Source: a virus
Lineage: Duplodnaviria > Heunggongvirae > Uroviricota > Caudoviricetes
Virus record (IMG/VR): IMGVR_UViG_2660238499_000006
Coordinates: 1 to 16,014 of that record
Reading direction: 5' to 3' (one strand)
DNA length: 16,014 nucleotides
The position numbers and the translations under genes were made by a program. The notes under the pieces were generated by a model that had not been told where the DNA came from, ran no database searches, and worked only from the letters and a program-made list of their open reading frames with translations. Positions 1 to 16,014 of this stretch are shown here, piece by piece. How positions within the stretch are numbered: the first letter of the stretch is position 1; every line of letters begins with the position of its first letter.

Positions 1-297
1 GGGTGCTTAAGTTACAGGATCCTGGATTCGGGACCAGACGGTACTCAGACGACGCTTACCGCTGTCATTAAACATCACACCATTGAGGCTCTGAAGCTGT
101 TCCCGAACATTGGACAGCATTGCCGACTGTGATTTTACGGAAATAAATTCATAACCCTGATTCCGCAGGTCCTGAATCAGTTCACGTTCCAGGTCCGATT
201 CGCTCTGGTAGCTGTCGCTTGTTTGCTCAGCTTTGATGTACTTATCAAGGACGATAAAGTTATTGGATTCAGCAATGGTGTGTGTTTGATGAGTCAT
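1..297 (-). CDS. hsdR: Type I restriction endonuclease R subunit (HsdR), N-terminal ~97 codons only; gene runs off the window start
   Basis: Minus-strand ORF with ATG at 295-297 (MTHQTHTIAESNNFIVLDKYIKAEQ...), open to the window edge. Lies directly downstream of hsdM-hsdS in the order typical of plasmid-borne type IC systems. N-terminus resembles EcoR124-family HsdR from memory. Confidence 0.7.
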
Positions 298-418
298 AGC
301 GCATCCTTTGTGCCGCCTGGCAAGAGCCGGAAGGGCGTTAAGAGTGACTTCCGGCGCGTAAAAAATAGTCTATATACTGACCGGGTGTTAAGGTGGCCCG
401 ATCGGTAGCAATGGTCAA

Positions 419-1566
<1,148 letters not shown>

Positions 1567-1570
<4 letters not shown>

Positions 1571-3129
1571 TTCTGCACCTCGCAGCCTTCAATTTCAGCC
1601 ACAATCGCATCAATATCTTTACGCAACTGGTCGATTTTGCTAACCGTAGTTTTAAGCTCTGCATTTAGCTCAGCAATATTGATAATTTCGCGGTTATCTT
1701 TCGCTTCTACATAGCAGCTCACCGACAGGTTATAGTCATTAGCGACAACGGTCTCAAACGCGACAGATTTCGCCAGATGAGCAACATCTTCCTTGCTGGC
1801 AAATACCTGCATAATCTGTTCGATATGGGCATCGGTCAGGATATTGTTGTTGGTCTCTTTTTTGAATAGTTCGCTGGCATCAATAAACTGAACTTTGGTA
1901 TCCGTTTTATGTTTAGACAGCACCAGAATATTGACGGCAATAGTGGTGCCAAAGAACAGATTCGGTGCCAGTGAAATCACGGTTTCGACATAGTTATTAT
2001 CAACCAGATACTGACGGATTTTCTGCTCCGCGCCGCCACGGTAAAAAATACCCGGGAAGCAGACAATCGCAGCACGACCTTTGGCCGAAAGATAGTTCAG
2101 CGCATGTAATACAAACGCAAAGTCAGCTTTGGATTTGGGGGCCAGAACGCCAGCCGGGGCAAAACGCTCATCGTTAATCAGCGTCGGGTCATCGCTGCCA
2201 ATCCATTTCACCGAATACGGCGGGTTAGAAACGATGGCATCAAACGGTTTTTCATCTCTGAAGTGCGGTTCAGTCAGCGTATTGCCCAGCTTGATATCAA
2301 ACTTGTCGTAGTTGATGTTGTGCAAAAACATGTTCATACGTGCCAGGTTATAGGTCGTATGGTTGATTTCTTGTCCGAAAAAGCCTTCTTCAATGATATG
2401 GTTATCAAACTGCTTTTTAGCCTGCAACAACAGCGAACCGGAACCTGCGGCCGGGTCGTAGATTTTGTTAACGTGGGTCTGGCCATGCATTGCCAGTTGT
2501 GCAATCAGCTTAGAGACGTGCTGCGGTGTAAAGAACTCACCGCCTGACTTACCGGCATTTGCCGCATAGTTAGAAATCAGGAACTCATAGGCATCACCGA
2601 ACAGGTCAATCTGATGTTCGTTGAAGTCACCAAGTTTTAACCCTTCAACCCCTTTCAGAACCGCAGCCAGGCGGGCATTTTTATCTTTAACGGTGTTACC
2701 CAGGCGGTTACTGGTGGTATCGAAATCAGCAAACAAACCTTTGATGTCAGCTTCTGAAGGGTAACCGTAAGCAGAACTTTCGATAGCAACGAAGATGCTG
2801 TTTAAATCTGCATTCAGTCTGTCATTGGTATTTGCTTTCGCAGCTACGTTGCAGAAAAGCTGACTGGGGTAGATGAAGTAACCTTTGGTTTTGATGGCAT
2901 CGTCTTTAATGTCATCAGTAATTACGCTGTCATCCAGTTTCGCATAACAGATACTGTCATCACCGGCTTCAATATAGCTGGAAAAATTTTCGCTGATAAA
3001 ACGGTAGAAAAGTGCGCCCAGAACGTATTGCTTAAAATCCCATCCATCGACCGAACCCCTGACATCGTTAGCAATTTGCCAGATTTGACGATGAAGCTCT
3101 GCACGTTGTTGAATACTTGTCATTTTCAT
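1567..3129 (-). CDS. hsdM: Type I R-M N6-adenine DNA methyltransferase subunit (HsdM)
   Basis: 520-aa minus ORF with the catalytic NPPY motif (..[12 protein letters not shown]..) and an AdoMet-binding-like [11 protein letters not shown] motif. Stop overlaps the hsdS start. Confidence 0.93.
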
Positions 3130-3253
3130 CCACTTATTTCAGGCTTATGTAATTGGCGGTGATTCTACAGCAACTTGGATGCTTTAGCAGTTCGGACATT
3201 AGGCAACGAATGACCTAATTAGAGCTTTTTGGAAAAGCGGTATTGTCGGTGCG

Positions 3254-3478
3254 ATGATAGCTATGTTTGGGTGCGCGATGGTGCAATACAATGACGGTGA
3301 AAAGGTAAGCATCCAGTCTGATGGCTGGTATGGGCTGGATAGCCTGCAAAAAACCGCAGATAAAGCCTGTCAGCAATATGGAAAGTCCAAAGCTGTATAT
3401 CAGCATAGTGCGAACGCTAACCCTCATCTTACGCCCGGTTCGGGTGTTCAGAATACCATCTGGAAATGTGAGCCTTAA
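3254..3478 (+). CDS. Small hypothetical protein, tightly coupled to hot (stop 2 nt before the hot ATG); true start uncertain
   Basis: 74-aa [21 protein letters not shown]...; frame is open upstream to 3203 with a hydrophobic stretch but no ATG. Likely the P1 upf-type gene preceding hot. Confidence 0.4.
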
Positions 3479-3480
3479 AC

Positions 3481-3732
3481 ATGAGCAACTGGAACATAGC
3501 AGCTAAAAGCCAGGAAGAAAGGAATAAAGTTAACGTTGACCTGGCTGCCAGGGGGGTTGCCTACAAAGAGCGATTGAACATACCCGTCATAGCGGAACAG
3601 GTAGCCCGTGAGCAACCTGAGAACCTGCGCACCTATTTCATGGAACGGCTACGGCACTACCGGCAGTTAAGCCTCCTGCTGCCAAAAGGAAACGATCCGG
3701 TATATCAGAAAGAAGATATAGCCAAAAAATAA
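3481..3732 (+). CDS. hot: Hot, homolog of DNA polymerase III theta subunit (HolE-like)
   Basis: 83 aa containing [35 protein letters not shown], which matches the HolE/theta pattern ([20 protein letters not shown]...EQPE.LR). Sits immediately upstream of humD as in P1. Confidence 0.75.
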
Positions 3733-3792
3733 CGCGCCACCAGGCGAGCGCAAAGCATCGCGCTATTGCACACTTCAAGCATCTTTAATGTA

Positions 3793-3812
3793 TACTGTAT
3801 GGATAAACAGTA
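3793..3812 (+). promoter_or_regulatory. LexA (SOS) box upstream of humD
   Basis: tACTGTATGGATAAACAGta fits the CTGT-N8-ACAG consensus, centred about 28 bp upstream of the humD ATG. Confidence 0.7.
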
Positions 3813-3830
3813 CTCTGAGGTGAAAACGCT

Positions 3831-4220
3831 ATGGGCTTCCCTTCTCCTGCGGCGGATTATGCTGAGAGCCGTATTTCTCTTGATCAGCAGATAATTAGAC
3901 ATCCTTCAGCGACCTACTTCATGAGGGCAGCTGATAGTCATCATCGTGAGGGAATATTACAGGGTGCATTGCTGGTGGTTGATTCCTCACTTACCCCAGT
4001 TGATGGTTCTCTGCTTGTATGCGCTCTGGATGGGGAATATCGCGTAAAAAGATACCGGAAGTATCCACGTCAGCATCTGGAGGATTTAAGCACCGGGAAG
4101 AAAGAGGCGTTACCAGTAGATGACGATGGATGCACGGGCAGTAATGCTGTGTTTGGTGTGATCACTCATGTCATTAATGATGCCCGAAGTGGGGAATTTG
4201 ATGATTGTCCGGTGATTTAA
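3831..4220 (+). CDS. humD: HumD, UmuD'-like translesion-synthesis accessory protein (S24 peptidase fold)
   Basis: 129 aa, MGFPSPAADYAE... is the UmuD' N-terminal signature. SD gaggtga 8 nt upstream and a LexA box in the promoter. Confidence 0.85.
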   Translation: MGFPSPAADYAESRISLDQQIIRHPSATYFMRAADSHHREGILQGALLVVDSSLTPVDGSLLVCALDGEYRVKRYRKYPRQHLEDLSTGKKEALPVDDDGCTGSNAVFGVITHVINDARSGEFDDCPVI

Positions 4221-4255
4221 GCTGCAAAGTGCTGGTGCTTTATGCCTGTGAAGTT

Positions 4256-4283
4256 TATAATTGTGTACACATAACGAGTACAC
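4256..4283 (+). promoter_or_regulatory. phd-doc promoter -10 (TATAAT 4256-4261) followed by a palindromic candidate Phd operator (GTGTACAC 4263-4270; GTACAC 4278-4283)
   Basis: Perfect TATAAT, then the self-complementary GTGTACAC and a second GTACAC half-site immediately before the phd RBS. Confidence 0.5.
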
Positions 4284-4292
4284 GAGGTGTTT

Positions 4293-4514
4293 ATGCAATC
4301 CATTAACTTCCGTACCGCGCGCGGCAACCTTTCTGAAGTGCTCAACAATGTTGAGGCCGGGGAAGAGGTTGAAATCACCCGCAGAGGCCGTGAGCCAGCA
4401 GTAATTGTCAGCAAGGCTACTTTCGAAGCCTACAAAAAAGCGGCGCTGGATGCTGAATTTGCATCCCTGTTTGACACTCTGGACTCCACCAACAAGGAAC
4501 TGGTTAACCGATAA
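4293..4514 (+). CDS. phd: Phd antitoxin (prevent-host-death), 73 aa
   Basis: [49 protein letters not shown]... ATG at 4293 preferred over the GTG at 4287 reported in the ORF track. Stop overlaps the doc start. Confidence 0.92.
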
Positions 4515-4894
4515 TGAGGCATATATCACCGGAAGAACTTATTGCGCTTCATGATGCGAATATAAGCCGCTACGGCGGCCTGCCGGGAATGTCAGATCCG
4601 GGTAGGGCAGAGGCCATTATCGGGAGAGTTCAGGCCAGAGTTGCCTACGAAGAGATCACCGACCTTTTCGAAGTCTCCGCCACCTACCTGGTGGCTACAG
4701 CGAGAGGGCATATATTCAATGATGCCAATAAGCGTACCGCGCTAAACAGTGCGCTGCTATTTCTACGCCGTAACGGGGTGCAGGTATTTGATTCACCTGA
4801 ACTGGCAGACCTTACTGTAGGGGCTGCGACCGGAGAGATATCTGTATCTTCTGTCGCCGACACGTTACGTAGATTGTATGGTTCCGCGGAGTAG
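4514..4894 (+). CDS. doc: Doc toxin (death-on-curing; Fic-fold kinase), 126 aa
   Basis: [22 protein letters not shown]... with the Fic-type motif [14 protein letters not shown] overlap with phd. Confidence 0.92.
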
Positions 4895-4898
4895 ATTA

Positions 4899-5078
4899 AT
4901 GGCACGTAAATACAACAAGTTGTCCCGTGAAGCGTTAAAGATGCTTCTTGATGGCGTGAGTCGCCGCGAGGTAAAGCAATACCTGGTTGGTAAGCAAATT
5001 GGTGCCAGGACCGCTATTGCTGTGTTATGCCGTCAGGAAATGGTTGTGCTTAAACAGAGAATGTCGGGCAGCAGATAA
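4899..5078 (+). CDS. pdcA: PdcA (post-doc protein A), small protein; start chosen at the ATG with SD gcggag
   Basis: ORF in the P1 position after doc. ATG at 4899 (MARKYNKLSREALKMLLDG...) has a better RBS than the upstream in-frame start at 4878. Confidence 0.5.
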   Translation: MARKYNKLSREALKMLLDGVSRREVKQYLVGKQIGARTAIAVLCRQEMVVLKQRMSGSR

Positions 5079-5105
5079 AGCCCAATCAGTGATTAAAGGT
5101 GTGAT

Positions 5106-6149
5106 GTGAAAGCCGTAATTACTCCCTTTGTACAAAAAGAGCTTGGCGTCGCCACATTCAAAGTGGATCAGGAGGTCAGAAAGCTGGTGGAGGCTGGCCG
5201 TAAATTTATTATGGAGCCGGTGCCGCGTGAGTTAATCGAGCACATGGACGACGGCCTCGTTGCTTCCGAGCAAACTATAGCAACAAATGAGGCGTTGCAG
5301 CCGTTTTTTAACAGCGATGAACTGTTTCGCCGTATTGGTGGAATTGACGCGCTGGTGGCGTGGTTGCGCAGGAAAGAGGGGCAATGCCAGGCCGCAGATC
5401 GTAGCTGGTGTGACAACCATATTGTCCACGCAGAACGAGACAATAGCGCGGTGTTGTTGTGCTGGCATCACGATAACCATTACCGGATGCGTGGTTTTAA
5501 TGAGCTGAAAGAAACGCTGCATAATAATCGCGTTAACTGGATACTGGATGTCGCCCGTCAGGAAATGGGGCTTTCAGATGGCCATGATTTAAGTATTCAG
5601 GAACTGTGCTGGTGGGCTTTCATGCGCGACATGATGCACCTGATGCCGGAAGAAGTCTGCCGTATATCAATAAATAAGATTAAGGCTGCAACGCAGGATA
5701 GCGGACCTCTGAAAGAGGCGGATATTCGCCCGTATGACGATCGCGCTACAGCATATGTTCAGATGATGGAAGAACGCGCCGCGCCGATGCGTGCAAAAGT
5801 ATGCTCTGTGGATGTTGACTCCGACCCTGGCATGGCGCATTTCAAAATACCAAAACTGCAATCGCTAAAATTACCTGAGTACATGGACTTTGTTGCTTCC
5901 CGTCCATGCTGTGGGTGTGGAGCTGCGGGAGCTGGCGCTCACATTACGCCTTATATCGTTCGTCATAGTCGATTATGCGCGCATGACATTTACGCAATTC
6001 CTCTGTGCCAGTCATGCCAGCGTGATATTGAGCGTGACCGCGATAATTGGGAGAAGACGCACGGTAGGTTGGCGATGCATCAACGATTGTTCTTTGATTA
6101 CGCGCTTGGAGTGGGCGTTATCACAAGTCATTCGTCGAGTGTTAGATAA
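5106..6149 (+). CDS. pdcB: PdcB (post-doc protein B), 347 aa, Cys/His-rich C-terminus (possible HNH/zinc-binding-like module)
   Basis: GTG start with SD aaaggtg. C-terminal ...[41 protein letters not shown]... Position conserved with P1. Confidence 0.6.
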
Positions 6150-6150
6150 A

Positions 6151-6193
6151 ATTGCTCTAATGTATTGCTATTTCTTTAATCGAGGGTATTATA
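6151..6193 (+). promoter_or_regulatory. C1 operator (ATTGCTCTAATgtATTg, 6151-6167) overlapping a promoter for lpa (-35 TTGCTA 6165-6170, -10 TATTAT 6187-6192)
   Basis: 11/11 match to the ATTGCTCTAAT operator core; the promoter hexamers are read directly from the sequence. Confidence 0.65.
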
Positions 6194-6237
6194 TTCCACG
6201 TTGATTAGTTGACATGGGCTAATCAGTAGGTGACAGG

Positions 6238-6690
6238 ATGTTACTTAACTGGCAGGGACGCCACTTCATGGAAATAAATCACTCACGAATAACATCGTAC
6301 GAGATTGCGGATTACATGATCCGCACTAAATCTCTTCTATCAGCGAAAGAACTCGCAGCAATTCTTGAAAAGGAACACCCGCATCTGGATGTCGATAAGC
6401 GCGATGTTTATCTGCGCTTAAAGGCTATCGCTGTGTCTAAGTATTCGTCTGTTTTGATTGATGACAGTACACGCCCACGTAGATTTCAGATCCACTCTCT
6501 GAATCCTGAATTCTTTCGCCGTAGCCGCGCTCCGCGCCGGTTTGATGAAAAACTCCAGAATGAACTCTATATGACGCAGGACGAAAAGGAACGCCGGGAG
6601 CACCAGCCTTGGGTAATGGCGCGTCAACTTTTCAATAAGGTGGCCCGTCAGCACCGTCATTACGGTAATGCCACATCCGCACGTATCTGA
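6238..6690 (+). CDS. lpa: Lpa, late promoter activator (gp10-like)
   Basis: 150-aa basic protein immediately upstream of pacA and preceded by a C1-operator-controlled promoter. An alternative start at 6268 (MEINHSR) cannot be excluded. Confidence 0.6.
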   Translation: MLLNWQGRHFMEINHSRITSYEIADYMIRTKSLLSAKELAAILEKEHPHLDVDKRDVYLRLKAIAVSKYSSVLIDDSTRPRRFQIHSLNPEFFRRSRAPRRFDEKLQNELYMTQDEKERREHQPWVMARQLFNKVARQHRHYGNATSARI

Positions 6691-6776
6691 TTGATTGCTT
6701 GCCCGTTCCGGGCCTTTTGACATGTGACTTTCGTTACCCTCGCGTCAAAAAGAGTTTTATACGAAAGGAAGCATAA

Positions 6777-7970
6777 GTGACCTGGGACGATCACAAGAAG
6801 AATTTTGCTCGCCTGGCGCGAGATGGTGGTTACACCATCGCACAGTATGCCGCCGAGTTTAATCTTAACCCTAATACCGCACGTCGTTATCTCCGTGCCT
6901 TCAAAGAAGACACCAGGACTGCGGACAGCCGCAAGCCAAATAAGCCAGTCAGGAAGCCACTAAAAAGCATGATCATTGATCACTCTAATGATCAACATGC
7001 AGGTGATCATATTGCGGCTGAAATAGCGGAAAAACAGAGAGTTAATGCCGTTGTCAGTGCCGCAGTCGAGAATGCGAAGCGCCAAAATAAGCGCATAAAT
7101 GATCGTTCGGATGATCATGACGTGATCAACCGCGCCCACCGGACCTTACGTGATCGCCTGGAACGCGACACCCTGGATGATGATGGTGAACGCTTTGAAT
7201 TCGAAGCTGGCGATTACCTGATAGATAACGTTGAAGCGCGGAAGGCCGCGCGCGCTATGTTGCGTCGGTCCGGGGCCGATGTTCTGGAAACCACTCTTCT
7301 TGAAAAGTCTCTTTCTCATCTCCTTATGCTGGAGAACGCCAGGGATACGTGTATTCGCCTGGTGCAGGAAATGCGCGATCAGCAAAAAGACGATGATGAA
7401 GGTACTCCGCCTGAATACCGTATCGCGAGCATGCTAAACAGCTGTTCCGCGCAGATAAGCAGTCTGATCAACACCATTTACAGCATCCGGAATAACTATC
7501 GAAAAGAAAGCCGGGAGGCGGAAAAGCACGCTTTGTCTATGGGGCAAGCTGGCATTGTTAAGCTGGCATACGAACGAAAGCGTGAAAATAACTGGTCAGT
7601 GCTGGAAGCGGCTGAATTCATCGAGGCGCATGGAGGAAAAGTGCCGCCCCTGATGCTGGAGCAAATCAAAGCCGATCTGCGTGCTCCTAAGACCAATACC
7701 GATGATGAGGAAAACCAAACAGCATCTGGCGCTCCATCACTTGAAGATCTGGATAAAATCGCGCGAGAACGGGCCGCCAGCCGCCGCGCTGATGCGGCAT
7801 TGTGGATTGAGCATCGTAGAGAAGAAATTGCCGATATCGTCGATACAGGTGGTTATGGTGATGTCGATGCGGAAGGCATATCAAACGAAGCATGGCTTGA
7901 ACAGGATCTGGACGAAGACGAGGAGGAAGACGAAGAAGTCACCCGCAAGCTATACGGGGATGATGATTAA
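6777..7970 (+). CDS. pacA: PacA, packaging (pacase) subunit; contains the pac site and an acidic C-terminal tail
   Basis: 397 aa; GTG start with SD aaggaag. pac hexamer clusters lie inside the ORF. C-terminus ...[19 protein letters not shown] overlap with pacB. Confidence 0.85.
6970..7128. other. P1-type pac site: four TGATCA hexamers (6970, 6977, 6989, 7004) and three TGATC(G/A) hexamers (7100, 7112, 7123) flanking the cleavage region; an extra TGATCG at 7151
   Basis: Seven hexamers in a 4+3 arrangement over about 160 bp, each carrying a Dam GATC site, matching the described organisation of the P1 pac site. Confidence 0.85.
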
Positions 7971-9454
7971 TGGCCAGAAGTTGCGTAACGGATCCACGTT
8001 GGCGCGAGCTGGTGGCGCTATATCGTTATGACTGGATTGCGGCCGCTGATGTTTTGTTCGGCAAAACACCTACCTGGCAGCAGGATCTGATTATTGAGTC
8101 TGTGCAGGAACAGGGTAGCAAGACATCTGTTTCGTCTGGTCACGGTACCGGGAAATCAGACATGACTTCTATCATGATCATGTTGTTCATAATCATGTAT
8201 CCCGGTGCCCGCGCCATTATCGTTGCGAACAAAATTCAGCAGGTAATGACCGGTATTTTCAAGTACATCAAGATAAACTGGGCTACTGCCACCAGCCGTT
8301 TTCCATGGCTTGCTGATTATTTTGTTCTGACAGAAACCGCTTTCTATGAGGTTACTGGTAAAGGTGTATGGACTGTAGTACCGAAGGGCTTTCGTCTGGG
8401 AAGTGAAGAAGCTCTCGCCGGTGAACACGCAGATCATCTTCTGTATATTATCGATGAAGCCTCCGGTGTCAGTGATAGAGCTTTCGGTATCATCACCGGT
8501 GCTCTTACCGGACAGGATAACCGCATCTTATTGCTGTCACAGCCTACACGCCCAAGCGGCTATTTCTACGATACACACCATAAACTGGCCAAGCGTCCTG
8601 GTAACCCTGATGGCGTTTATACGGCGATCACGCTTAACAGTGAGGAATCACCGTTGGTAACGCCAGCATTTATCAAAATGAAGCTGGCGGAGTACGGCGG
8701 GCGTGATAACCCTATGTACATGATTAAGGTACGCGGCCTATTCCCTAAATCACAGGATGGCTTCCTTCTTGGACGTGATGAGGTTGAACGTGCAACGCGG
8801 CGGAAAGTCAAGATTGCAAAAGGATGGGGCTGGCTTGCATGTGTGGACGTTGCTGGTGGTACGGGACGGGATAAGTCCGTTATCAATATCATGATGGTGT
8901 CCGGCCAGCGAAATAAACGCCGTGTAATCAACTATCGAATGCTGGAATACACAGACGTTACAGAAACGCAGCTTGCCGCCAAAATTTTCGCAGAATGTAA
9001 TCCTGAGCGATTCCCAAATATCACCATAGCGATAGATGGCGATGGCCTGGGTAAAGCAACGGCGGATCTGATGTACGAGTATTATGGTATTACCGTACAG
9101 CGTATACGCTGGGGTAAAAAGATGCATAGCCGTGAAGATAAGAGCCTGTACTTTGATAAACGTGCTTATGCCAACGTTCAAGCCGCAGAGGCCGTAAAAT
9201 CTGGTCGTATGAGACTGGATAAGGGTAATGAAACTATTGAGGAAGCGTCGAAAATCCCTGTAGGGATTAACTCCGCAGGTCAATGGAAGGTGATGAGTAA
9301 GGAGGATATGAAGAAAAAACTCAACCTGCACTCACCAGACCATTGGGATACATATTGTTTCGCTATGCTGGCGGATTATGTTCCTCAGGATGAAGTGCTT
9401 AGCGTCGAAGACGAAGCGCAGGTTGATGAAGCTCTGGCATGGCTTAATGAATAA
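7970..9454 (+). CDS. pacB: PacB, packaging (pacase/terminase-like) large subunit
   Basis: 494 aa, translationally coupled to pacA. Contains a Walker-A-like [10 protein letters not shown] motif and an acidic region. Confidence 0.85.
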
Positions 9455-9457
9455 ATA

Positions 9458-9474
9458 TTTGCTCTAATAAATTG
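9458..9474 (+). promoter_or_regulatory. C1 operator (tTTGCTCTAATAAATTg) immediately after the pacB stop
   Basis: 16/17 match to the ATTGCTCTAATAAATTT consensus. Confidence 0.7.
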
Positions 9475-9605
9475 TGTTTTTTAACTACCGATGTTACATT
9501 GAACCTGACCTCTTGCGCCTTGAGGCATTTTCGGTTTATGCTTATCAGGCACCTCAGTAAAACGGGTGCCGGGATTGAGACCCCGGATAATGCAAAAGGC
9601 GACAC

Positions 9606-9629
9606 AGACGCCAAAAGCGTCTTTTTTTG
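9606..9629 (+). terminator. Rho-independent terminator (stem agacgc/gcgtct, loop caaaa, T7)
   Basis: GC-containing hairpin followed by TTTTTTT on the plus strand, about 150 nt after pacB. Confidence 0.6.
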
Positions 9630-9813
9630 TGTCATGCCATCGCACAGCCATACGTAGCGTTTAGCTCAGAGATCAATGGTAGTGCTGGCTGGGCTGCCGA
9701 AAGGCAGGCCGGTTCCCTTTTGCGCCGGTAGTCTCAACCCAGTCAGTGCTACCGCCATTGAGATTGAGACCTCACGCGGTAGCTCCTTAAATTAGCAAAA
9801 GGAGGCTGCCATT

Positions 9814-10035
9814 GTGGCTACTATCCCTACCCCTGCTCATCCTGAATTTATCTGGCGCTTTTACTCCTGCCAAAAACGTCACTATCACTTCGTTATTGCA
9901 CCGACAGAAGATGAGGCACGTTCTCAGCTTCCGGATGCTCCCTGTATTTTCTCTGCCCGCTTTTCTACCGATTCGCGCAATTCTCTCAGTTACTGGTGCC
10001 TCCCTGTTAACGCTTCTGCTCAGGAGGGACTATGA
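9814..10035 (+). CDS. Icd-like small protein (candidate host cell-division inhibitor), 73 aa
   Basis: GTG start 8 nt after GGAGG. PEFIWRF...PTEDEARSQL...IFSARF fits the Icd-like F.WRF / TE.EAR pattern as I recall it. Its TGA stop overlaps the ATG of the next ORF (ATGA). Confidence 0.45.
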   Translation: MATIPTPAHPEFIWRFYSCQKRHYHFVIAPTEDEARSQLPDAPCIFSARFSTDSRNSLSYWCLPVNASAQEGL

Positions 10036-10214
10036 GAACGTCATTAGTCACCCGTGAAGAGATGATCGAGGCAATTGAACAGCACACTGCCTGTATCAGT
10101 ACCAGGGATATACCGGGCGTTATTGCCAACTACTTCATTCATGATCACCAAACAACTTTACCGGAGAAAGGACAAACACGCGGTTCACCGCATTCTGCTA
10201 ACCGATATCCGTGA
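10032..10214 (+). CDS. 60-aa ORF translationally coupled to the icd-like gene; possibly the N-terminal remnant of a frame-disrupted Ant1-like start
   Basis: ATG overlaps the upstream stop (ctATGA). The ORF ends at 10214 while the ant frame (+1) is open across the same region. Confidence 0.3.
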   Translation: MRTSLVTREEMIEAIEQHTACISTRDIPGVIANYFIHDHQTTLPEKGQTRGSPHSANRYP

Positions 10215-10284
10215 ATACCTGCTCGAACAGGGTCATCTGAATTACGCAACCGTCGCAGCCGAAGCACGCAAGGAGGCACACAGA

Positions 10285-11148
10285 ATGAAAGCAACTAACG
10301 TTAAATCAGAAAAAATTTATGCACCTTCAGTTCAGGAATCGGAACTGGTGGTTGTTCAGAATCAGCCGGATGAAATTCCCGTTCTGGAATGGCAGGGAGT
10401 ACGTGTCGTGACAACCGAAACTCTTGCTAGAGGGTATGGGGTCGATGAAGCCAATATTCGCAACAATTTGTCTCGCAACCTTGACCGCTTTGAAGAAGGT
10501 AAGCATTACTTTCTTCTAACTGGTTTAAAATTAAGAGAATTTAAGAACAGAGTAACCGGAAGTTACTCTGTTGGTAAGAACGCCAGAAGCCTTACACTCT
10601 GGACAGAGCGCGGCGCTGCACGCATGTCTAAGATCGTGGACACAAATGAAGCGTGGGCATTCTTTGAAAAACTGGAAGACAGCTACTTCCGACAAAAAGA
10701 ACAGCAACCGATCGCAATCCCCCAGACGCTTCCAGAAGCTCTGCGCCTGGCTGCCGAACTGGCTGAACAAAAGCAGCTTCTGGAACAGAAAGCCCACCAG
10801 CTAAATCAGCAGCTGGTGGCCGCCGCTCCTAAAGTCGATTTTGCCGACCGGGTATCAGTAGCTAAAGGGATCCTGATTGGGAATTTTGCAAAGGTTGTTG
10901 GACTTAAGCAAAACGCGCTGTTTGCCTGGTTACGGGAGAACGGCATCCTGATAGCGTCCGGTGGACGTAAAAATGTGCCGTTCCAGCAGTACATCAATGC
11001 GGGGTATTTCACGGTGAAAGAAGTGATGCTGGATGATGAAGATGGCTACCAGATACGGTTGACGCCTCAATTAACGGGTAAAGGCCAGCAGTGGTTGACG
11101 CGTAAACTGCTCGATGCTGGCTTGTTAAAACCGGTGGCGGCTGAATAA
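10285..11148 (+). CDS. Phage antirepressor-like protein (N-terminal ORF6N/Bro-N-like, C-terminal KilAC/Ant-C-like), Ant2-sized (287 aa)
   Basis: Strong SD AGGAGG 8 nt before the ATG at 10285. ...PVLEWQGVRVVTTETLARGYGVDEANIRNNL... and C-terminal ...FADRVSVAKGILIGNFAKVVGLKQNALFAWLRENGILIASGG...YINAGYFTVKEV... are antirepressor-type domain patterns. The frame stays open upstream to 10066. Confidence 0.6.
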   Translation: MKATNVKSEKIYAPSVQESELVVVQNQPDEIPVLEWQGVRVVTTETLARGYGVDEANIRNNLSRNLDRFEEGKHYFLLTGLKLREFKNRVTGSYSVGKNARSLTLWTERGAARMSKIVDTNEAWAFFEKLEDSYFRQKEQQPIAIPQTLPEALRLAAELAEQKQLLEQKAHQLNQQLVAAAPKVDFADRVSVAKGILIGNFAKVVGLKQNALFAWLRENGILIASGGRKNVPFQQYINAGYFTVKEVMLDDEDGYQIRLTPQLTGKGQQWLTRKLLDAGLLKPVAAE

Positions 11149-11155
11149 TGGAAGA

Positions 11156-11177
11156 ATGCCCGGTTGATGCCGGGCAT
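11156..11177. terminator. Hairpin (atgcccgg/ccgggcat) between the convergent ant-like and c1 genes; candidate bidirectional terminator
   Basis: 8-bp stem lying between the ant-like stop (11146-11148) and the c1 stop (11181-11183), with T-rich flanks on both strands. Confidence 0.4.
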
Positions 11178-11180
11178 AAT

Positions 11181-12032
11181 TTATTGCGCGCTTTCGGGGT
11201 TGTCGTTTACTGGCTGCCCCTTCTTGGTTTTACGGCTGCGCGTAACTGATGCGGCTGACTTAACCTTTTTCTCTTCGCGAGTGATGGCAATTTGTTTTTT
11301 TACATTTTCAATATCTGCCAGGCGATATATTTTTGCTTGCGGCCAGCGGTCGCAGATGATCGGTTCTATGGAGTCATAAAGGCTAAATTTTGCTTTTTCG
11401 AATTCACCGTTGATGATAATTCCATCACGGAGAGTTTCATCGCAGATAAACACGCCACACAGTGGCACATGGTAACTAACTGATTTACCATCATTGTAGT
11501 TAGGGCTACTGGAAATGTAGTGGACGCGCAGCATTGTTTCGCTAAAGCCGTGTACGCGCATACGGAATTTTTCATCCTCCGGGTACTGCCTCATTAGCTC
11601 TTTTGTTGCTTCCAGGTTCTCTATGTATTTCGCACTGTGCTCATTGATCCCCGCGCTTTTTTGGATGCGAATGTCCTTATCAATCAGATGAATAATGCGG
11701 CCAGCGGTCATGTTGACGCTGTTCACAGCTTCTGTCTGATAAGTTGTAACCTTGCGCACACCGCGAAGGATGTTAGGCACTGGATATAAAATAGTCTTTG
11801 GGATATTGAGGTCTGGGTACTGTTCCAGTTCCCGCGCCATTAAAGTCCATTTATCAATTTCAGCCTGAATGCTGTCCGTTTCTTTGAACGGTAGAACGAC
11901 AACCGGGCGTACAGGACGACCGTCGCTGGCGGTATCAACGTGTTGGGCGCGTGCAACAGCTTTTTTTAGAAAGAGATCCCTGAAGCTGACGAACTCCTGG
12001 TACAGTTGTTCGCCGTAGACATAATTTATCAT
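11181..12032 (-). CDS. c1: C1 repressor of lysis (primary immunity repressor), 283 aa
   Basis: MINYVYGEQLYQEFVSFRDLFLKK...; length, position next to coi/loxP and the surrounding operators all match P1 C1. Confidence 0.92.
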   Translation of the reverse strand: MINYVYGEQLYQEFVSFRDLFLKKAVARAQHVDTASDGRPVRPVVVLPFKETDSIQAEIDKWTLMARELEQYPDLNIPKTILYPVPNILRGVRKVTTYQTEAVNSVNMTAGRIIHLIDKDIRIQKSAGINEHSAKYIENLEATKELMRQYPEDEKFRMRVHGFSETMLRVHYISSSPNYNDGKSVSYHVPLCGVFICDETLRDGIIINGEFEKAKFSLYDSIEPIICDRWPQAKIYRLADIENVKKQIAITREEKKVKSAASVTRSRKTKKGQPVNDNPESAQ

Positions 12033-12126
12033 TGATCCTCCTCCAGAATTGACATGGTCAATAACGCCCGGCTGAGAAAACCGGTCATTACTGACCTATA
12101 TTATAGAGGGATCAAACAAAAATAAT

Positions 12127-12143
12127 AGATTTATTAGTGCATT
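12127..12143 (-). promoter_or_regulatory. C1 operator (reverse orientation, about 14/17) between coi and c1
   Basis: agATTTATTAGtGCAtT compared with AAATTTATTAGAGCAAT. Confidence 0.5.
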
Positions 12144-12352
12144 TATTGTGAGTCTAACTGGTTAGTTGCCATGAGATATTCGATTGTGTCAGTGAGGTCA
12201 TCCAGGTCGTCTTGGGTGATGCGGTACTCCTGATTGGATATCTTTGAGTAGTGTTCAGCAATGGCGCGGGCAGCGTCGGTTTCGGCAGGGTCTACAGATA
12301 AAGCGTTAGAGCAATGTCTAACGTCGTCGATGGTTGGTTGAATGAAAGCCAT
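12143..12352 (-). CDS. coi: Coi, C1 inactivator, 69 aa
   Basis: 69-aa acidic ORF (MAFIQPTIDDVRH...) directly upstream of c1 on the same strand, with SD GAGG 7 nt before the ATG. Confidence 0.8.
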   Translation of the reverse strand: MAFIQPTIDDVRHCSNALSVDPAETDAARAIAEHYSKISNQEYRITQDDLDDLTDTIEYLMATNQLDSQ

Positions 12353-12590
12353 AATTATGCCTCACTGTATTGACAACACAGAGCCTGAAGCTCTGACCTA
12401 CTGTTTCACCCATGATCCATGCTGGGGTAATCTAACAACATTGCGCTGTGTGTAAGATGAGCAATGCATAGCTGTAATGCCGTTGTATAAGGTTTCCCTG
12501 TTTGCTCATTTCCTTCTGAGCCGCTCTACAACGCTGAAGACACATTAAATAGTGAATCCAAAGTCGTATTACGTAACGGCGGCAAAACTA

Positions 12591-12607
12591 TAATTTATTA
12601 GAGCAAT
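12591..12607 (-). promoter_or_regulatory. C1 operator (reverse orientation, 16/17), overlapped by a minus-strand TTGACA (12609-12614) and a plus-strand TATAAT (12589-12594)
   Basis: tAATTTATTAGAGCAAT. Candidate immC promoter/operator driving coi-c1. Confidence 0.7.
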
Positions 12608-12673
12608 TGTCAAACAACTATGAAAAACAATCCAGTTTTTAGCTGGTGGAGTGGGATTTTTCTCTCAAAATTT

Positions 12674-12690
12674 ATTGCTCTAATAATTCT
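12674..12690 (+). promoter_or_regulatory. C1 operator (ATTGCTCTAATAATTCT, 14/17)
   Basis: Direct match to the operator core, 44 bp left of loxP. Confidence 0.65.
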
Positions 12691-12733
12691 TGATTTTTGT
12701 GCGCAGCTGGACGTAAACTCCTCTTCGGACCTA

Positions 12734-12767
12734 ATAACTTCGTATAGCATACATTATACGAAGTTAT
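12734..12767. other. loxP site (ATAACTTCGTATA-GCATACAT-TATACGAAGTTAT)
   Basis: Exact 34-bp canonical loxP: two 13-bp inverted arms around the asymmetric 8-bp spacer. Confidence 0.98.
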
Positions 12768-12786
12768 ATTAAGGGTTATTGAATAT

Positions 12787-12859
12787 GATCAATTTACCTG
12801 TAAATCCATACAGTTCAATACCTTGGCAGGTCAAATAGTGATCACTTGATCATTTGATC
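12787..12859. promoter_or_regulatory. Cluster of four Dam GATC sites in the cra/cre upstream region (candidate methylation-sensitive promoter)
   Basis: GATC at 12787, 12840, 12848 and 12856; three lie within 20 bp (gtGATCacttGATCatttGATCaagg). Confidence 0.5.
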
Positions 12860-12956
12860 AAGGTTGCGCTACGTAAAATCTGTGAAAAATTGGCGGTGTC
12901 AGTCCTACAGATTTCGCGTAGCGCACTTAGCACCACCAATCAATCAGAGGTGAAAA

Positions 12957-13178
12957 ATGGGATATTCAGCTGCTAAAGTGTCCACTCATCTTGAGCTTGA
13001 GAAAAATCGTGGTTACTGGCGGGCAAAAGGGTTTGATCGTGATAGTTGTCAACTGTCATTATCGCGCGGTGAAGAAAAGATAGAACGCAGTCGCGGTCGT
13101 TGGCGTTTCTATGACGAGAACCATAAACAGGTAAAGGCAGAGCCGATCCTGTACACTTTACTTAAAACCATTATCTGA
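12957..13178 (+). CDS. cra: Cra (cre-associated small protein)
   Basis: 73-aa ORF with SD gaggtg, immediately upstream of cre as in P1. Confidence 0.65.
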   Translation: MGYSAAKVSTHLELEKNRGYWRAKGFDRDSCQLSLSRGEEKIERSRGRWRFYDENHKQVKAEPILYTLLKTII

Positions 13179-13185
13179 GTGTTAA

Positions 13186-14217
13186 ATGTCCAATTTACTG
13201 ACCGTACACCAAAATTTGCCTGCATTGCCGGTCGATGCAACGAGTGATGAGGTTCGCAAGAACCTGATGGACATGTTCAGGGATCGCCAGGCGTTTTCTG
13301 AGCATACCTGGAAAATGCTTCTGTCCGTTTGCCGGTCATGGGCGGCATGGTGCAAGTTGAATAACCGGAAATGGTTTCCCGCAGAACCTGAAGATGTTCG
13401 CGATTATCTTCTATATCTTCAGGCGCGCGGTCTGGCAGTGAAAACTATCCAGCAACATTTGGGCCAGCTAAATATGCTTCATCGTCGGTCCGGGCTGCAA
13501 CGACCAAGTGACAGCAATGCTGTTTCACTCGTCATGCGACGGATCCGAAAAGAAAACGTTGATGCCGGTGAGCGTGCAAAACAGGCGCTGGCGTTCGAAC
13601 GCACTGATTTCGACCAGGTTCGTTCACTCATGGAAAATAGCGATCGCTGCCAGGATATACGTAATCTGGCATTTCTGGGGATTGCTTATAACACCCTGTT
13701 ACGTATAGCCGAAATTTCTAGGATCAGAGTTAAAGATATCTCACGTACTGACGGTGGGAGAATGTTAATCCATATTGGCAGAACGAAAACGCTGGTTAGC
13801 ACCGCTGGTGTAGAGAAGGCACTTAGTCTGGGGGTAACTAAACTGGTTGAGCGATGGATTTCTGTCTCTGGTGTGGCTGATGATCCGAATAACTACTTGT
13901 TTTGCCGTGTCAGAAAAAATGGTGTTGCCGCGCCATCTGCCACCAGCCAGCTATCAACTCGCGCCCTGGAAGGGATTTTTGAAGCAACTCACCGATTGAT
14001 TTTCGGGGCTAAGGATGACTCTGGCCAGAGGTACCTGGCCTGGTCTGGACACAGTGCCCGTGTCGGAGCCGCGCGAGATATGGCCCGCGCCGGAGTTTCA
14101 ATACCGGAGATCATGCAAGCTGGTGGCTGGACCAACGTAAATATTGTCATGAACTATATCCGTAACCTGGATAGTGAAACAGGGGCAATGGTGCGCCTGC
14201 TGGAAGATGGCTATTAG
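13186..14217 (+). CDS. cre: Cre site-specific tyrosine recombinase, 343 aa
   Basis: MSNLLTVHQNLPALPVDATSDEVRKNLMDMFRDRQAFSEHTWKMLLSVCRSWAAWCKLNNRKWFPAEPEDVRDYLLYLQARGLAVKTIQQHLGQLNMLHRRSGL...; start lies 436 bp from the loxP centre, as in P1 numbering. Confidence 0.98.
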   Translation: MSNLLTVHQNLPALPVDATSDEVRKNLMDMFRDRQAFSEHTWKMLLSVCRSWAAWCKLNNRKWFPAEPEDVRDYLLYLQARGLAVKTIQQHLGQLNMLHRRSGLQRPSDSNAVSLVMRRIRKENVDAGERAKQALAFERTDFDQVRSLMENSDRCQDIRNLAFLGIAYNTLLRIAEISRIRVKDISRTDGGRMLIHIGRTKTLVSTAGVEKALSLGVTKLVERWISVSGVADDPNNYLFCRVRKNGVAAPSATSQLSTRALEGIFEATHRLIFGAKDDSGQRYLAWSGHSARVGAARDMARAGVSIPEIMQAGGWTNVNIVMNYIRNLDSETGAMVRLLEDGY

Positions 14218-14234
14218 CCATTAGCGCGCAAATG

Positions 14235-14251
14235 ATTGCTCTAATTCTTTG
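14235..14251 (+). promoter_or_regulatory. C1 operator (ATTGCTCTAATTCTTTG) just after the cre stop
   Basis: 11/11 core match. Confidence 0.6.
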
Positions 14252-14267
14252 GTATTTATGGTGACAT

Positions 14268-14579
14268 GTGAGAAAGGATTTCAACATCGACGGAAAATAT
14301 GTAGTGCTGTCTGTAAGCACTAATATTCAGTCGCCAGCCGTCATTGTCACTGTAAAGCTGAGCGATAGAATGCCTGATATTGACTCAATATCCGTTGCGT
14401 TCCCTGTCAAAAGTATGCGTAGTGCTGAACATTTCGTGATGAATGCCACCGAGAAAGAAGCACGGCGCGGTTTTGCCAAAGTGATGGCCGAGTTTGGCGA
14501 ATTTTTGGGGCACGTTGACAAAGCCCTTTCAATCAGTTCAGCAAGGTCCAAAGCGTTAACAGCTTCCATGCTGAAATAA
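14268..14579 (+). CDS. Hypothetical protein in the c8 position between cre and ref; weak start (GTG, no clear SD)
   Basis: 103-aa ORF. The coding call is uncertain because the adjacent terminator belongs to the opposite strand and the start context is poor. Confidence 0.3.
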   Translation: MRKDFNIDGKYVVLSVSTNIQSPAVIVTVKLSDRMPDIDSISVAFPVKSMRSAEHFVMNATEKEARRGFAKVMAEFGEFLGHVDKALSISSARSKALTASMLK

Positions 14580-14604
14580 AAAAAGCCTGGCAAGGAGCCA
14601 GGCT
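14574..14604 (-). terminator. Strong rho-independent terminator for a leftward (minus-strand) transcript
   Basis: 8-bp perfect stem agcctggc/gccaggct with loop aagga; on the minus strand it is followed by TTTTTTTATTT. Confidence 0.65.
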
Positions 14605-14709
14605 GCACAAAAGAGCGGGTTTGTATTCCGCATTCAATCAATCAAGAAGGAGTATAGTACACAGGTACTGAAGTGAAAAAATGTGATTCGCGATAAACAA
14701 ATAACTTTA

Positions 14710-14739
14710 ATTGCTCTAATTGATTGCTATAATTGAGCC
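14710..14739 (+). promoter_or_regulatory. Two overlapping C1 operators (ATTGCTCTAATTGATTG 14710-14726; ATTGCTATAATTGAGCC 14723-14739) with an embedded perfect -10 TATAAT (14728-14733)
   Basis: Operator cores and the -10 hexamer are read directly; the arrangement resembles the tandem C1 operators reported upstream of ref in P1. Confidence 0.65.
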
Positions 14740-14793
14740 GCAGTTTTTGTCAACTACGAAGACGTTGCCATTACTTCACTCCTTGACATCATT

Positions 14794-14819
14794 GGCGGCC
14801 ATTAGGCCGCCTTTTTTTT
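14794..14819 (+). terminator. Strong rho-independent terminator/attenuator ending 5 nt before the ref ATG
   Basis: 7-bp GC stem ggcggcc/ggccgcc, loop atta, followed by T8. Confidence 0.7.
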
Positions 14820-14824
14820 GCCAT

Positions 14825-15262
14825 ATGAAAACAATCGAACAAAAACTTGAACAGCGCCGCGAGTGGCAGAAGGCAGCCAGAGAACGAGCGATCGATCGGC
14901 AACGGGAAAAGTTGGCTGACCCCGCCTGGCGAGAATCGCAATATCAGAAAATGCGGGATTCTATCGACCGCCGTATCGCTAAACAGAAAGAGCGCCCACC
15001 AGCCAGCAAAACGCGGAAAAGTGCGGTAAAAATAAAATCTCGTGGCTTGAAGGGGCGAACACCGACGGCGGAGGAACGGACCATCGCCAATGCTCTTGGC
15101 ACTCTCCCCTGCATTGCCTGCTACATGCATGGAGTAATATCTGAAGAGGTGTCTCTGCACCATATCTCCGGTCGTACCGCGCCGGGTTGTCACAAAAAGC
15201 AATTGCCCCTTTGTAGATGGCACCACCAGCATGCAGCACCGGCTGAAGTAAGAGGGGTTTGA
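14825..15262 (+). pseudogene. ref: ref (recombination enhancement function, HNH-type nuclease), 3'-truncated by a Tn3-family insertion; the last codons and the stop come from the transposon inverted repeat
   Basis: MKTIEQKLEQRREWQKAARERAIDRQREK... with a Cys/His cluster (CIACYMHGVISEEVSLHHISGRTAPGCHKKQLPLCRWHH). The ORF is 145 aa against the 186 aa I recall for P1 Ref, and the frame runs into the IR starting at 15254. Confidence 0.6.
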
Positions 15263-15291
15263 GGGCCAATGATGTAAAAAACCACGCTAAG
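15254..15291. repeat. Tn3-family 38-bp terminal inverted repeat (GGGGTTTGAGGGCCAATGATGTAAAAAACCACGCTAAG)
   Basis: GGGG...ACGCTAAG architecture; the first 18 bp match the gamma-delta/Tn1000-type IR as I recall it. The tnpA stop codon (15287-15289) lies inside it, as is typical of Tn3-family elements. Confidence 0.8.
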
Positions 15292-15956
15292 GAGGTAATT
15301 CATTGTTTAAATTGAGATTTAACGGCCTCAATTCCCCCTTCATAATATCCTCCGGTAGTGTGAACGTATAATGTCCCAGCATGTTGATATGACCATGCAT
15401 CAGAGGCGAAAGCCGCGCGATATGTTCATCTTCTGGCCCTTCCCCAGTGCTACGCAGGTGCGACAAGGCTTCCTGCATATAAAGCGTATTCCACAGCACC
15501 ACTGCGTTTGTCACCAGACCCAGCGCACCCAACTGATCTTCCTGCCCCTCGCGGTAACGTTTTCTGATCTCACCACGCTGACCGTAGCAAATGGCTCTTG
15601 CCACGGCATGGCGACCTTCGCCCCGGTTAAGCTGTGTTAGGATCCTGCGGCGATAGTCCTCATCATCAATATAGTTGAGAAGATACAGTGTCTTGTTAAC
15701 TCTTCCGACCTCCATTATTGCCTGAGCAAGCCCTGACGGTCGGGTACTTCTCAATAGCGATCGAATGAGTTCTGACGCATGAATTGTGCCCAGCTTCAGC
15801 GAACCTGCAACCCGCATCATCTCATCCCAGTGGCTTTCGATTTTAGAAAGGTCAACACAACCCCGAGCCAGTTCGTCCAACGCCCCGTAATTCGCTGCTT
15901 TGTCAGCCCGCCAGAACACCGCCTCACCAGCATCCGCCAGACGAGGTGAAAATTGG
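15287..15956 (-). pseudogene. tnpA: Tn3-family transposase (TnpA), C-terminal ~220 codons only; 5' part removed by IS26
   Basis: Translation ...IESHWDEMMRVAGSLKLGTIHASELIRSL...LNYIDDEDYRRRILTQLNRGEG...LGLVTNAVVLWNTLYMQEAL...HINMLGHYTF matches the conserved Tn3-family TnpA C-terminus. The frame is cut at the IS26 boundary, with an in-frame stop inside IS26. Confidence 0.8.
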
Positions 15957-16014
15957 GGCACTGTTGCAAATAGTCGGTGGTGATAAACTTATCATCCCCT
16001 TTTGCTGATGGAGC
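15957..16014 (+). mobile_element. IS26 left end (IRL GGCACTGTTGCAAA plus 44 bp of leader), continuing beyond the window
   Basis: GGCACTGTTGCAAATAGTCGGTGGTGATAAACTTATCATCCCCTTTTGCTGATGGAGC matches the IS26 IRL and tnp26 upstream sequence from memory. Confidence 0.85.

Follow-up and report, generated by a model that had tools for sequence, protein, structure and literature searches.

The stretch of viral DNA considered here, positions 1 to 16,014 of the IMG/VR record IMGVR_UViG_2660238499_000006 (hereafter the window, 16,014 nucleotides), carries a second immI-like module composed of a C1 operator-like site, a promoter, an isrK-like leader RNA, a c4 antisense RNA gene, an icd-like gene and an antirepressor gene, ant (Table 1). 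The intergenic part of this module very probably represents the central portion of an antisense RNA immunity cassette of the c4/CI type, situated between pacB and c1. The cassette is unannotated here, and is an ordinary member of a known family of small phage RNAs, that of c4 of phage P1 and CI of phage P4. RNAs of this kind pair over the ribosome-binding site of the adjoining icd-antirepressor message and thereby hold a P1-like plasmid-prophage silent.

Table 1. Features of the module, by position in the window
Feature	Position	Strand	Sequence	Basis or remark
C1-repressor operator-like site (predicted)	9458-9474	+	TTTGCTCTAATAAATTG	place equivalent to P1 Oc4 (Op51)
Possible C1-controlled promoter	9472-9500	+	TTGTGT, 17 nucleotides, TACATT	analogue of P1 P2c4
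Cassette promoter (predicted)	9513-9542	+	TTGCGC (-35, 9513-9518), 18 nucleotides, TATGCT (-10, 9537-9542)	
isrK-type leader RNA, a1/b1 element	9549-9627	+		Rfam isrK (RF01394)
a1	9575-9581		UUGAGAC	loop of isrK hairpin 2
b1	9592-9599		GCAAAAGG	single-stranded
Intrinsic terminator, stem	9606-9622			followed by a U run
c4 antisense RNA gene	9672-9759	+		Rfam C4 (RF01695)
c4 basal stem, 17 base pairs	9677-9693 / 9738-9754			
c4 hairpin 1	9694-9707			
c4 hairpin 2	9708-9729			
b' recognition sequence	9716-9723	+	CCUUUUGC	loop of c4 hairpin 2
a' recognition sequence	9731-9737	+	GUCUCAA	single-stranded c4 junction
a2 target	9764-9770	+	UUGAGAC	just after c4, as a2 in P1
Leader segment X	9776-9783	+	GCGGUAGC	complementary to 3' strand of c4 basal stem, 9748-9755
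b2 target	9795-9802	+	GCAAAAGG	overlaps icd Shine-Dalgarno AAGGAGG, 9799-9805
GCUGCC box	9805-9810	+	GCUGCC	between Shine-Dalgarno and start codon; can pair with X or c4 5' strand 9677-9682
icd-like gene, 73 amino acids	9814-10035	+		NCBIfam phage_ICD_like, 49.8 bits (cut-off 25)
Antirepressor gene, ORF6N + KilAC	10032-11148	+		Pfam ANT, 108.7 bits; ORF6N, 66.7 bits

The c4 RNA, its target sites and its surroundings

An original prediction, made from the letters of 9640-9810, had proposed a c4-like antisense RNA or leader upstream of an Icd-like gene, with a covariance search and RNA folding as checks, and both checks bear out the antisense RNA. Specifically, the Rfam C4 model is matched over its full length (model positions 1-87) at 75.0 bits against a gathering score of 45 (E = 2e-13), and the minimum-energy fold of c4 alone (-46.4 kcal/mol, z = -5.6) matches the family structure. 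Across 78 distinct c4-to-start-codon sequences (the relatives), assembled from a pattern scan of IMG/VR and from loci already found, the three c4 helices are 99.7-100% paired with compensatory changes in 17 of 27 pairs, such that co-variation backs the basal stem as well as both hairpins. The U|G step at 9677/9678 and the GCCA at 9754-9757 occupy the positions of the annotated ends of P1 c4, and by analogy with these ends the mature RNA is predicted to run from approximately 9678 to 9756 or 9757 with a tRNA-like 3' GCCA.

Six complementary sites link c4 to its surroundings. The recognition sequence b' (CCTTTTGC as DNA) is perfectly complementary to both b2 and b1 (duplex -12.4 kcal/mol), and a' is perfectly complementary to both a2 and a1; a second, overlapping a2 register (UUGAGA) lies at 9758-9763. 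Among the relatives, b':b2 is 98-100% paired with compensatory changes at six of eight pairs, while a':a2 is 94.9% paired with such changes at six of seven, amounting to 12 of the 15 contact pairs. As in P1/P7-type systems, b2 lies over the ribosome-binding site: it overlaps the Shine-Dalgarno sequence in every relative examined, and its layout equals that of P1, in which b2 (GTTAGTGA) is followed by GG. These contacts had escaped the original prediction, and they, rather than the pairs it had listed (gctaccgc with gcggtagc, and caatgg with ccattg), are the antisense contacts of the module.

The gene downstream is Icd-like, as had been proposed: in addition to its family match, it has the length and position of P1 icd, and its product aligns with P1 Icd, likewise of 73 amino acids. 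The GGAGG of its ribosome-binding site lies at 9801-9805, exactly where it had been placed. Its start codon is GTG here, in a c4-to-start-codon sequence identical in 14 loci, and ATG in most other cassettes. The start of the antirepressor gene overlaps the icd stop by ATGA (10032-10035), as in P1/P7-type systems; relatives hold an intact antirepressor reading frame of 370-371 codons, while in the window the long ant frame is broken.

The upstream half of the module, which lay outside the coordinates of the original prediction, is matched over its full length by the Rfam isrK model at 58.2 bits against a gathering score of 50 (E = 2e-10). The element folds into two hairpins and is closed by a strong, Rho-independent terminator, 6 nucleotides upstream of which b1 ends. 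A second copy of the target sites is thus present upstream of c4, as in P1/P7-type systems, and the isrK-type element carries this decoy or second target set right before its terminator. The cognate a1 is present in 71 of 78 relatives and the cognate b1 in 68 of 78, as compared with 1.7% and 0.3% of non-cognate pairs. The c4-a1b1 motif (RF03163; Weinberg et al., 2010, PMC2864571) likewise precedes c4 and is built of two hairpins, the second carrying a1 in its loop; its model covers neither b1 nor the terminator, whereas the isrK model covers both, and at one locus (L183) a single upstream element passes the thresholds of both models.

Upstream of this element, the predicted cassette promoter would start transcription at approximately G9549. 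Its -35/-10 register is the same in P4 (TTGCCT and TATAGT), APSE-7, phiP27, Stx phages and the Salmonella phage 118970_sal3, lineages in which the -10 element ends 6 nucleotides ahead of the RNA start, although it scores below the threshold of a consensus promoter scan. The same scan did not detect the site at 9472-9500, a weak consensus match that is possibly a C1-controlled promoter by analogy with P1, where the -35 element of P2c4 abuts Oc4. It did return a promoter-like TTGAGA-18-TAAATT at 9764-9793, a candidate that was set aside, its -35 element being the a2 site. The operator-like site differs from ATTGCTCTAATAAATTT at two positions, and its P1 counterpart Oc4 (AATGCTCTAATAAATTT) lies upstream of c4. 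Six C1-operator-like sites are observed in the window against 0.07 expected; the five others (6151-6167, 12127-12143 and 12591-12607 on the minus strand, 12674-12690, and 14710-14726), matches to the P1 C1 operator consensus with up to three mismatches, lie before lpa, around c1 and coi, and further on.

Conservation, distribution and the overlying reading frame

Considered jointly, the c4 helices and the a':a2 and b':b2 contacts are paired in 98.8% of cells, as compared with 76.5% after shuffling and 29-49% after sliding. Compensatory changes affect 29 of 42 pairs, and the covariation score of 0.63 compares with 0.20 after shuffling and no more than 0.09 after sliding. These figures bear directly on whether the complementarities arose by chance in a G+C-rich intergenic region. 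Perfect inverted repeats of at least 8 base pairs occur in 15% of dinucleotide shuffles of 9640-9810, and the 8-mer repeat is for that reason not significant alone. The same segment holds 14 six-mer inverted repeats, however, against a shuffle mean of 3.6 (P = 0.002), and the Rfam matches, at the E-values given above, together with the co-variation already refute chance, to which next to no probability can be assigned.

The recognition sequences are very polymorphic: the 78 cassettes contain 18 a' and 26 b' variants in 48 combinations. The c4 of one locus (L026) differs from that of the window by four bases only, all of them in a' or b' and each matched in a1, a2, b1 and b2, constituting a natural specificity swap. 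Loci with near-identical Icd are preceded by three different cassettes, namely the window type, a second isrK type without blastn similarity in c4, and the P1 type with c4-a1b1. Pairs of Rfam isrK and C4 matches are also found in P4, APSE-7, phiP27, Stx phages and one Salmonella phage.

Several observations on individual cassettes may be added. Two IMG/VR loci (L183:1190-2110 and L107:9650-11210) contain three isrK-C4 cassettes in tandem, whose a' and b' sequences differ from one cassette to the next, with periods of approximately 385 and 656 nucleotides, respectively. In a third (L058:1340-1504, IMGVR_UViG_2609459791_000005), a deletion joins the interior of pacB directly to the b2/Shine-Dalgarno portion of a type B leader; the locus retains Icd but has neither isrK nor c4, and unrepressed icd-ant expression is therefore predicted. 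In APSE-7 (L086, LR794151.1, 836-859), the depositors label the hairpin 2 loop a' and the junction b', the reverse of what the P1 RefSeq record implies through its annotated a and b target sites. The pair of isrK and c4 is noted in their paper, but the a1 and b1 sites within isrK are not.

As judged by sequence similarity, the window belongs to a P1-like phage-plasmid of the JL22/RCS47/D6 group: an 861-base stretch around the cassette shares 98.8% identity with phage-plasmid JL22 and 94.7% with RCS47, and a sequence search matches part of the cassette region to D6 as well. Among 5,426 complete E. coli genomes, the region is matched in 449, and 563 of the 580 places concerned are on plasmids. 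In RCS47 and a RefSeq plasmid the order is pacA, pacB, the intergenic region, the icd-like gene and the antirepressor gene, with c1 and coi on the opposite strand. Because a canonical P1-type immI is present in the same phages approximately 50 kb away, the pacB-c1 cassette constitutes a second module. For the pacB-c1 insertion, the only earlier description is "two short orfs plus ant", and no RNA was described by Venturini et al.

The c4 of the canonical JL22 immI is predicted to pair with the leader of the window at only -5.5 and -2.8 kcal/mol, as compared with -12.4 and -9.2 kcal/mol for the cognate c4. Since the canonical RNA is thus not expected to bind this leader, the two modules of one phage would be orthogonal. 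Together with the 48 matched combinations, this prediction offers indirect support for the suggestion that c4 acts in trans with a specificity, or heteroimmunity, set by a' and b'.

That an RNA gene lies at 9672-9759 is certain. The region had nevertheless been called non-coding, and in this respect the description needs amendment: a 39-codon open reading frame (ORF, 9676-9795) overlies the RNA, and RefSeq labels such an ORF 'ash family protein' (WP_071527722.1 in a relative). The ORF matches Pfam Phage_ASH (PF10554) at 29.1 bits against a cut-off of 26; the same family, however, matches translations running through the isrK element and its terminator in phiP27 as well as the obsolete P4 'cI' coding sequence, and it matches long ORFs across isrK, c4 and leader in both phiP27 and Ss-VASD. 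Because its matches include the P4 'cI' coding sequence and these run-through ORFs, Phage_ASH looks like a translated RNA cassette. The frame that begins at a conserved AUG at the 5' end of c4 runs open as far as the following gene in 62 of the 78 relatives, as compared with 29 and 2 relatives for the two alternative frames, and is in frame with that gene in 77 of 78, and indels among the relatives are mostly multiples of three; yet the variability, at 0.79, 0.80 and 0.84 bits for codon positions 1 to 3, has no codon periodicity, 62 distinct peptides are encoded by the 78 sequences, and the substitutions are compensatory at the RNA level. The AUG, moreover, coincides with the U|G RNase P site of P1 c4 and is preceded by no consistent Shine-Dalgarno sequence. 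In Gifsy-1, orf45, which overlaps the c4-like RNA, has been SPA-tagged for Western analysis, and mutations of its start and stop codons lower antirepressor translation (PMC4825925). A protein-coding gene, be it of the Ash family or orf45-like, is unlikely to exist here in place of the RNA gene or besides it, while translation of the c4 precursor as such is possible.

A second predicted fold of the c4 precursor

The 8-base-pair inverted repeat of the original prediction does exist, with gcggtagc at 9776-9783 as proposed and gctaccgc shifted by one position, at 9748-9755 rather than 9749-9756; the related cggtag motif also recurs, at 9726-9731 (not 9725-9730) and again at 9777-9782. Of its two halves, gctaccgc provides the 3' side of the c4 basal stem, and gcggtagc is segment X, located at a fixed distance past c4 between a2 and b2. 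Conservation had been named as a check, and in the 78 homologues the 8-base-pair repeat is indeed kept and co-varying: a 9-base-pair core of the X helix is 93.6% paired, six of its nine pairs undergo compensatory changes, and its covariation score is 0.43, as compared with 0.245 in shuffles (0 of 500 reach 0.43) and at most 0.12 when slid. The helix is formed by GCUACCGC and GCGGUAGC in the window, by GCUAUCGCC and GGCGAUAGC in P4, by CCACCGC and GCGGUGG in Stx phages, and by CUCACCACC with GGUGGUGAG or UUCACCACC with GGUGGUGGA in other cassettes.

Absent from the Rfam C4 model, the X helix is recovered both when 9660-9830 is folded to minimum energy and in the RNAalifold consensus. In each, the RNA is predicted to form a four-way junction in which the c4 5' strand pairs with the GCUGCC box and a2 sits in the loop of a small hairpin. 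A second ccattg, at 9809-9814, takes part in the predicted precursor fold. The box is invariant at five of six positions among the relatives, one sequence having G for U; pairing amounts to 88.5% for X with the box and to 467 of 468 cells for the 6-base-pair core of the c4 5' strand with the box, without compensatory changes. Since the box side is almost invariant, co-variation is neutral on both of these helices.

The mention of leader structure as an alternative in the original prediction is borne out in part, the pair of gctaccgc and gcggtagc belonging to a conserved alternative fold of the precursor. It may tentatively be suggested that this repeat marks a second, conserved folding state that the c4/CI precursor adopts before processing, engaged in a switch with the native c4 fold. 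According to the same folding models, the lower half of the acceptor-like c4 stem would exchange partners, with 9748-9755 pairing to X and 9677-9682 to the box, though an exchange of this kind is still rather doubtful. The best guess as to its role is a precursor state that would bar RNase P processing and hold the icd start region. To our knowledge, such a second fold of a c4/CI precursor has no earlier description.

The co-varying helix between the c4 3' strand and X, the strand-swapped four-way junction predicted by both folding approaches, and a local hairpin that sequesters the Shine-Dalgarno sequence in this lineage could describe a structured leader acting only in cis, its alternative hairpins gating icd translation without any trans-acting small RNA. 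The homologues in P1, P7 and P4 are, however, established trans-acting RNAs (P1 annotation; PMC4825925), a' and b' co-vary both with the upstream targets and, separately, with the downstream ones, which a cis gate would not require, and a tRNA-like stem with a 3' GCCA fits the excision of a discrete RNA; control in cis only is very improbable. As regards the local hairpin, pairing of CUCCUU (9783-9788) with AAGGAG (9799-9804) was considered as a conserved feature and rejected, only 54.5% of the relatives being paired.

A further pair in the original prediction, caatgg at 9674-9679 and ccattg at 9755-9760, was correctly located but is not conserved, being absent from type B and P1-type cassettes. 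A functional helix of this pair was discarded on those grounds and for its clash with the conserved register of the c4 stem. In P1-type cassettes (P1 itself, at L082:1625-1783, and P1-type loci), the predicted fold pairs the upstream flank of c4 (CGUUACGCCC) with the icd Shine-Dalgarno and start region (GAGGCCGUAAC), forming a long-range helix that encloses c4, in a set that shows no sequence variation against which to check it. The alternative pairings of the window leader differ from these.

Control of the module in light of P1, P4 and Gifsy-1

The order of parts in the window, from the operator through ant with its ATGA overlap, matches that of P1 immI, for which the RefSeq record annotates Oc4, P2c4, P1c4, a1 (TTGACAG), b1 (GTTAGTGC) and a 77-nucleotide c4, followed by a2, b2 and a Shine-Dalgarno sequence, icd of 73 amino acids, and ant1/ant2. 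The c4 RNAs of P1 and P7 belong to the same family (RF01695) and share the tRNA-like stem, the two hairpins, the location of b' in the hairpin 2 loop and that of a' in the junction; their specificity likewise derives from a few a' and b' bases matched in the targets. The work cited for this P1/P7 antisense RNA is that of Citron and Schuster (1990). In contrast to these likenesses, the c4 of the window has no blastn similarity to those of the P1 type (type C), its a and b sequences are distinct, it is preceded by an isrK-type a1/b1 element with a strong terminator, and the cassette lies between pacB and c1, a second copy where relatives also have the canonical immI.

From these features a course of transcription, processing, repression and a1/b1 pairing can be inferred. 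Transcription would begin at approximately 9549 from the conserved sigma-70 promoter, and most transcripts would end at the intrinsic terminator (9606-9627), yielding an isrK-type RNA with a1 and b1. Transcripts that read through would contain c4, which, by homology with P1 c4 and P4 CI, would be released through RNase P cleavage at U9677|G9678 followed by trimming to GCC(A) at 9756 or 9757, giving a stable c4 RNA of approximately 79 nucleotides. Pairing of the b' loop with b2 over the icd Shine-Dalgarno sequence, and of a' in the junction with a2, would then stop translation of icd and, via translational coupling and polarity, that of the antirepressor, which would otherwise inactivate the C1 repressor. 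Binding of c4 to a1 and b1 on the nascent RNA would favor termination, as in the P4 model, while free isrK-type RNA would titrate c4, as the Gifsy-1 IsrK result suggests. Repression by the P1/P7 mechanism is supported in that the plan is shared with P1 and the contacts co-vary.

In sequence, however, the cassette is closer to P4 than to P1, CI being the nearest of the known systems with 72% identity (blastn) over c4 and leader, a similarity that extends through X, the Shine-Dalgarno sequence and the GCUGCC box into the first codons of the ORF that follows; among the matches listed, P1-type records match only via icd or a second cassette. P4 also shares the isrK-type element, the promoter register and the co-varying X helix, though its spacer from the isrK-type element to c4 is longer, its a and b specificities differ, and the replication operon (epsilon, alpha) rather than icd-ant lies downstream. 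In P4, whose CI immunity system comprises seqA, seqB and seqC, control is described as transcription termination, with CI pairing at the upstream and downstream sites seqA and seqC (summarized in PMC4825925). It is a real possibility, if not the favored one, that the window is controlled mainly in this manner, with c4 acting on nascent a1/b1 and a2/b2 to cause premature termination at the isrK terminator and beyond it, and with occlusion of the ribosome-binding site being secondary; the location of b1 only 6 nucleotides before a strong terminator is in keeping with such control. Termination of this type is compatible with, and not exclusive of, the P1/P7-like scheme above, in favor of which are the overlap of b2 with the Shine-Dalgarno sequence in every relative examined and an icd-ant ATGA layout like that of P1, where the annotated mode is translational repression.

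The third system of interest is IsrK/orf45 (STnc1160)/anrP of Gifsy-1, whose upstream element belongs to the same Rfam isrK family as that of the window and which likewise involves a processed stable RNA, a short ORF over the RNA ahead of an antirepressor gene, and read-through of the IsrK terminator (PMC4825925). Gifsy-1 differs in having no icd and in the model of its authors, by which IsrK activates orf45 translation rather than antagonizing c4. Provision of IsrK in trans raises antirepressor translation 139-fold, and the compensatory mutations G28A/C162U and G31A/C159U restore a helix (PMC4825925). Mapped through the related Salmonella phage 118970_sal3, with an offset of 3 nucleotides for Gifsy-1 numbering, G28 and G31 fall in a1 and C162 and C165, 3 nucleotides apart, in a'. 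Because G28 and G31 map to a1 and their predicted partners to a', with spacing and orientation kept, IsrK can be read, by analogy, as a c4-system a1/b1 element.

A number of observations weigh against the account favored here, in which c4 represses icd and ant and is itself titrated by the a1/b1 element. The authors of the Gifsy-1 study credit orf45 over the c4-like RNA and not titration of c4, and simple titration fails to explain some of their cis mutants (PMC4825925). The upstream element falls below the RF03163 gathering score, matching c4-a1b1 at 22.3 bits against 46.7 (E = 0.002, 9536-9589), a sub-threshold match from a permissive scan that covers the first two isrK hairpins. In this lineage, the leader can mask its own Shine-Dalgarno sequence in a local hairpin. 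Lastly, in comparison with pPEC301_4 and RCS47, a TTCA duplication (approximately 10134-10137) shifts the long ant frame after about 34 codons, such that the frame from the ATG at 10032 stops at 10214; an internal, ant2-like start (ATG at 10285, with the Shine-Dalgarno sequence AAGGAGG at 10270) is intact. With the long frame broken by this 4-base-pair duplication, the output of the module may therefore be crippled in this element.

While the known principle of c4-type control is unchanged by these data, the pacB-c1 insertion is explained as a complete RNA-controlled antirepressor module, by which common E. coli phage-plasmids gain an additional immunity switch whose predicted specificity is orthogonal to that of the canonical one. 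The 'ash family protein' and its Pfam family would largely be the translation of an isrK-c4 RNA cassette, and the specificity code of such cassettes proves very polymorphic, with at least 48 a'/b' combinations. A co-varying precursor helix, that of X, has in addition been brought to light; should the fold switch suggested for it be true, it would couple the maturation of c4 to whether the transcript can be translated or represses itself, and such coupling would span the whole isrK-type family of P4, Stx phages and P1-like elements. Taken together, one cassette plan joins three literatures, those of P1 c4 with a1/b1, of P4 CI with seqA and seqC, and of Salmonella IsrK with orf45.

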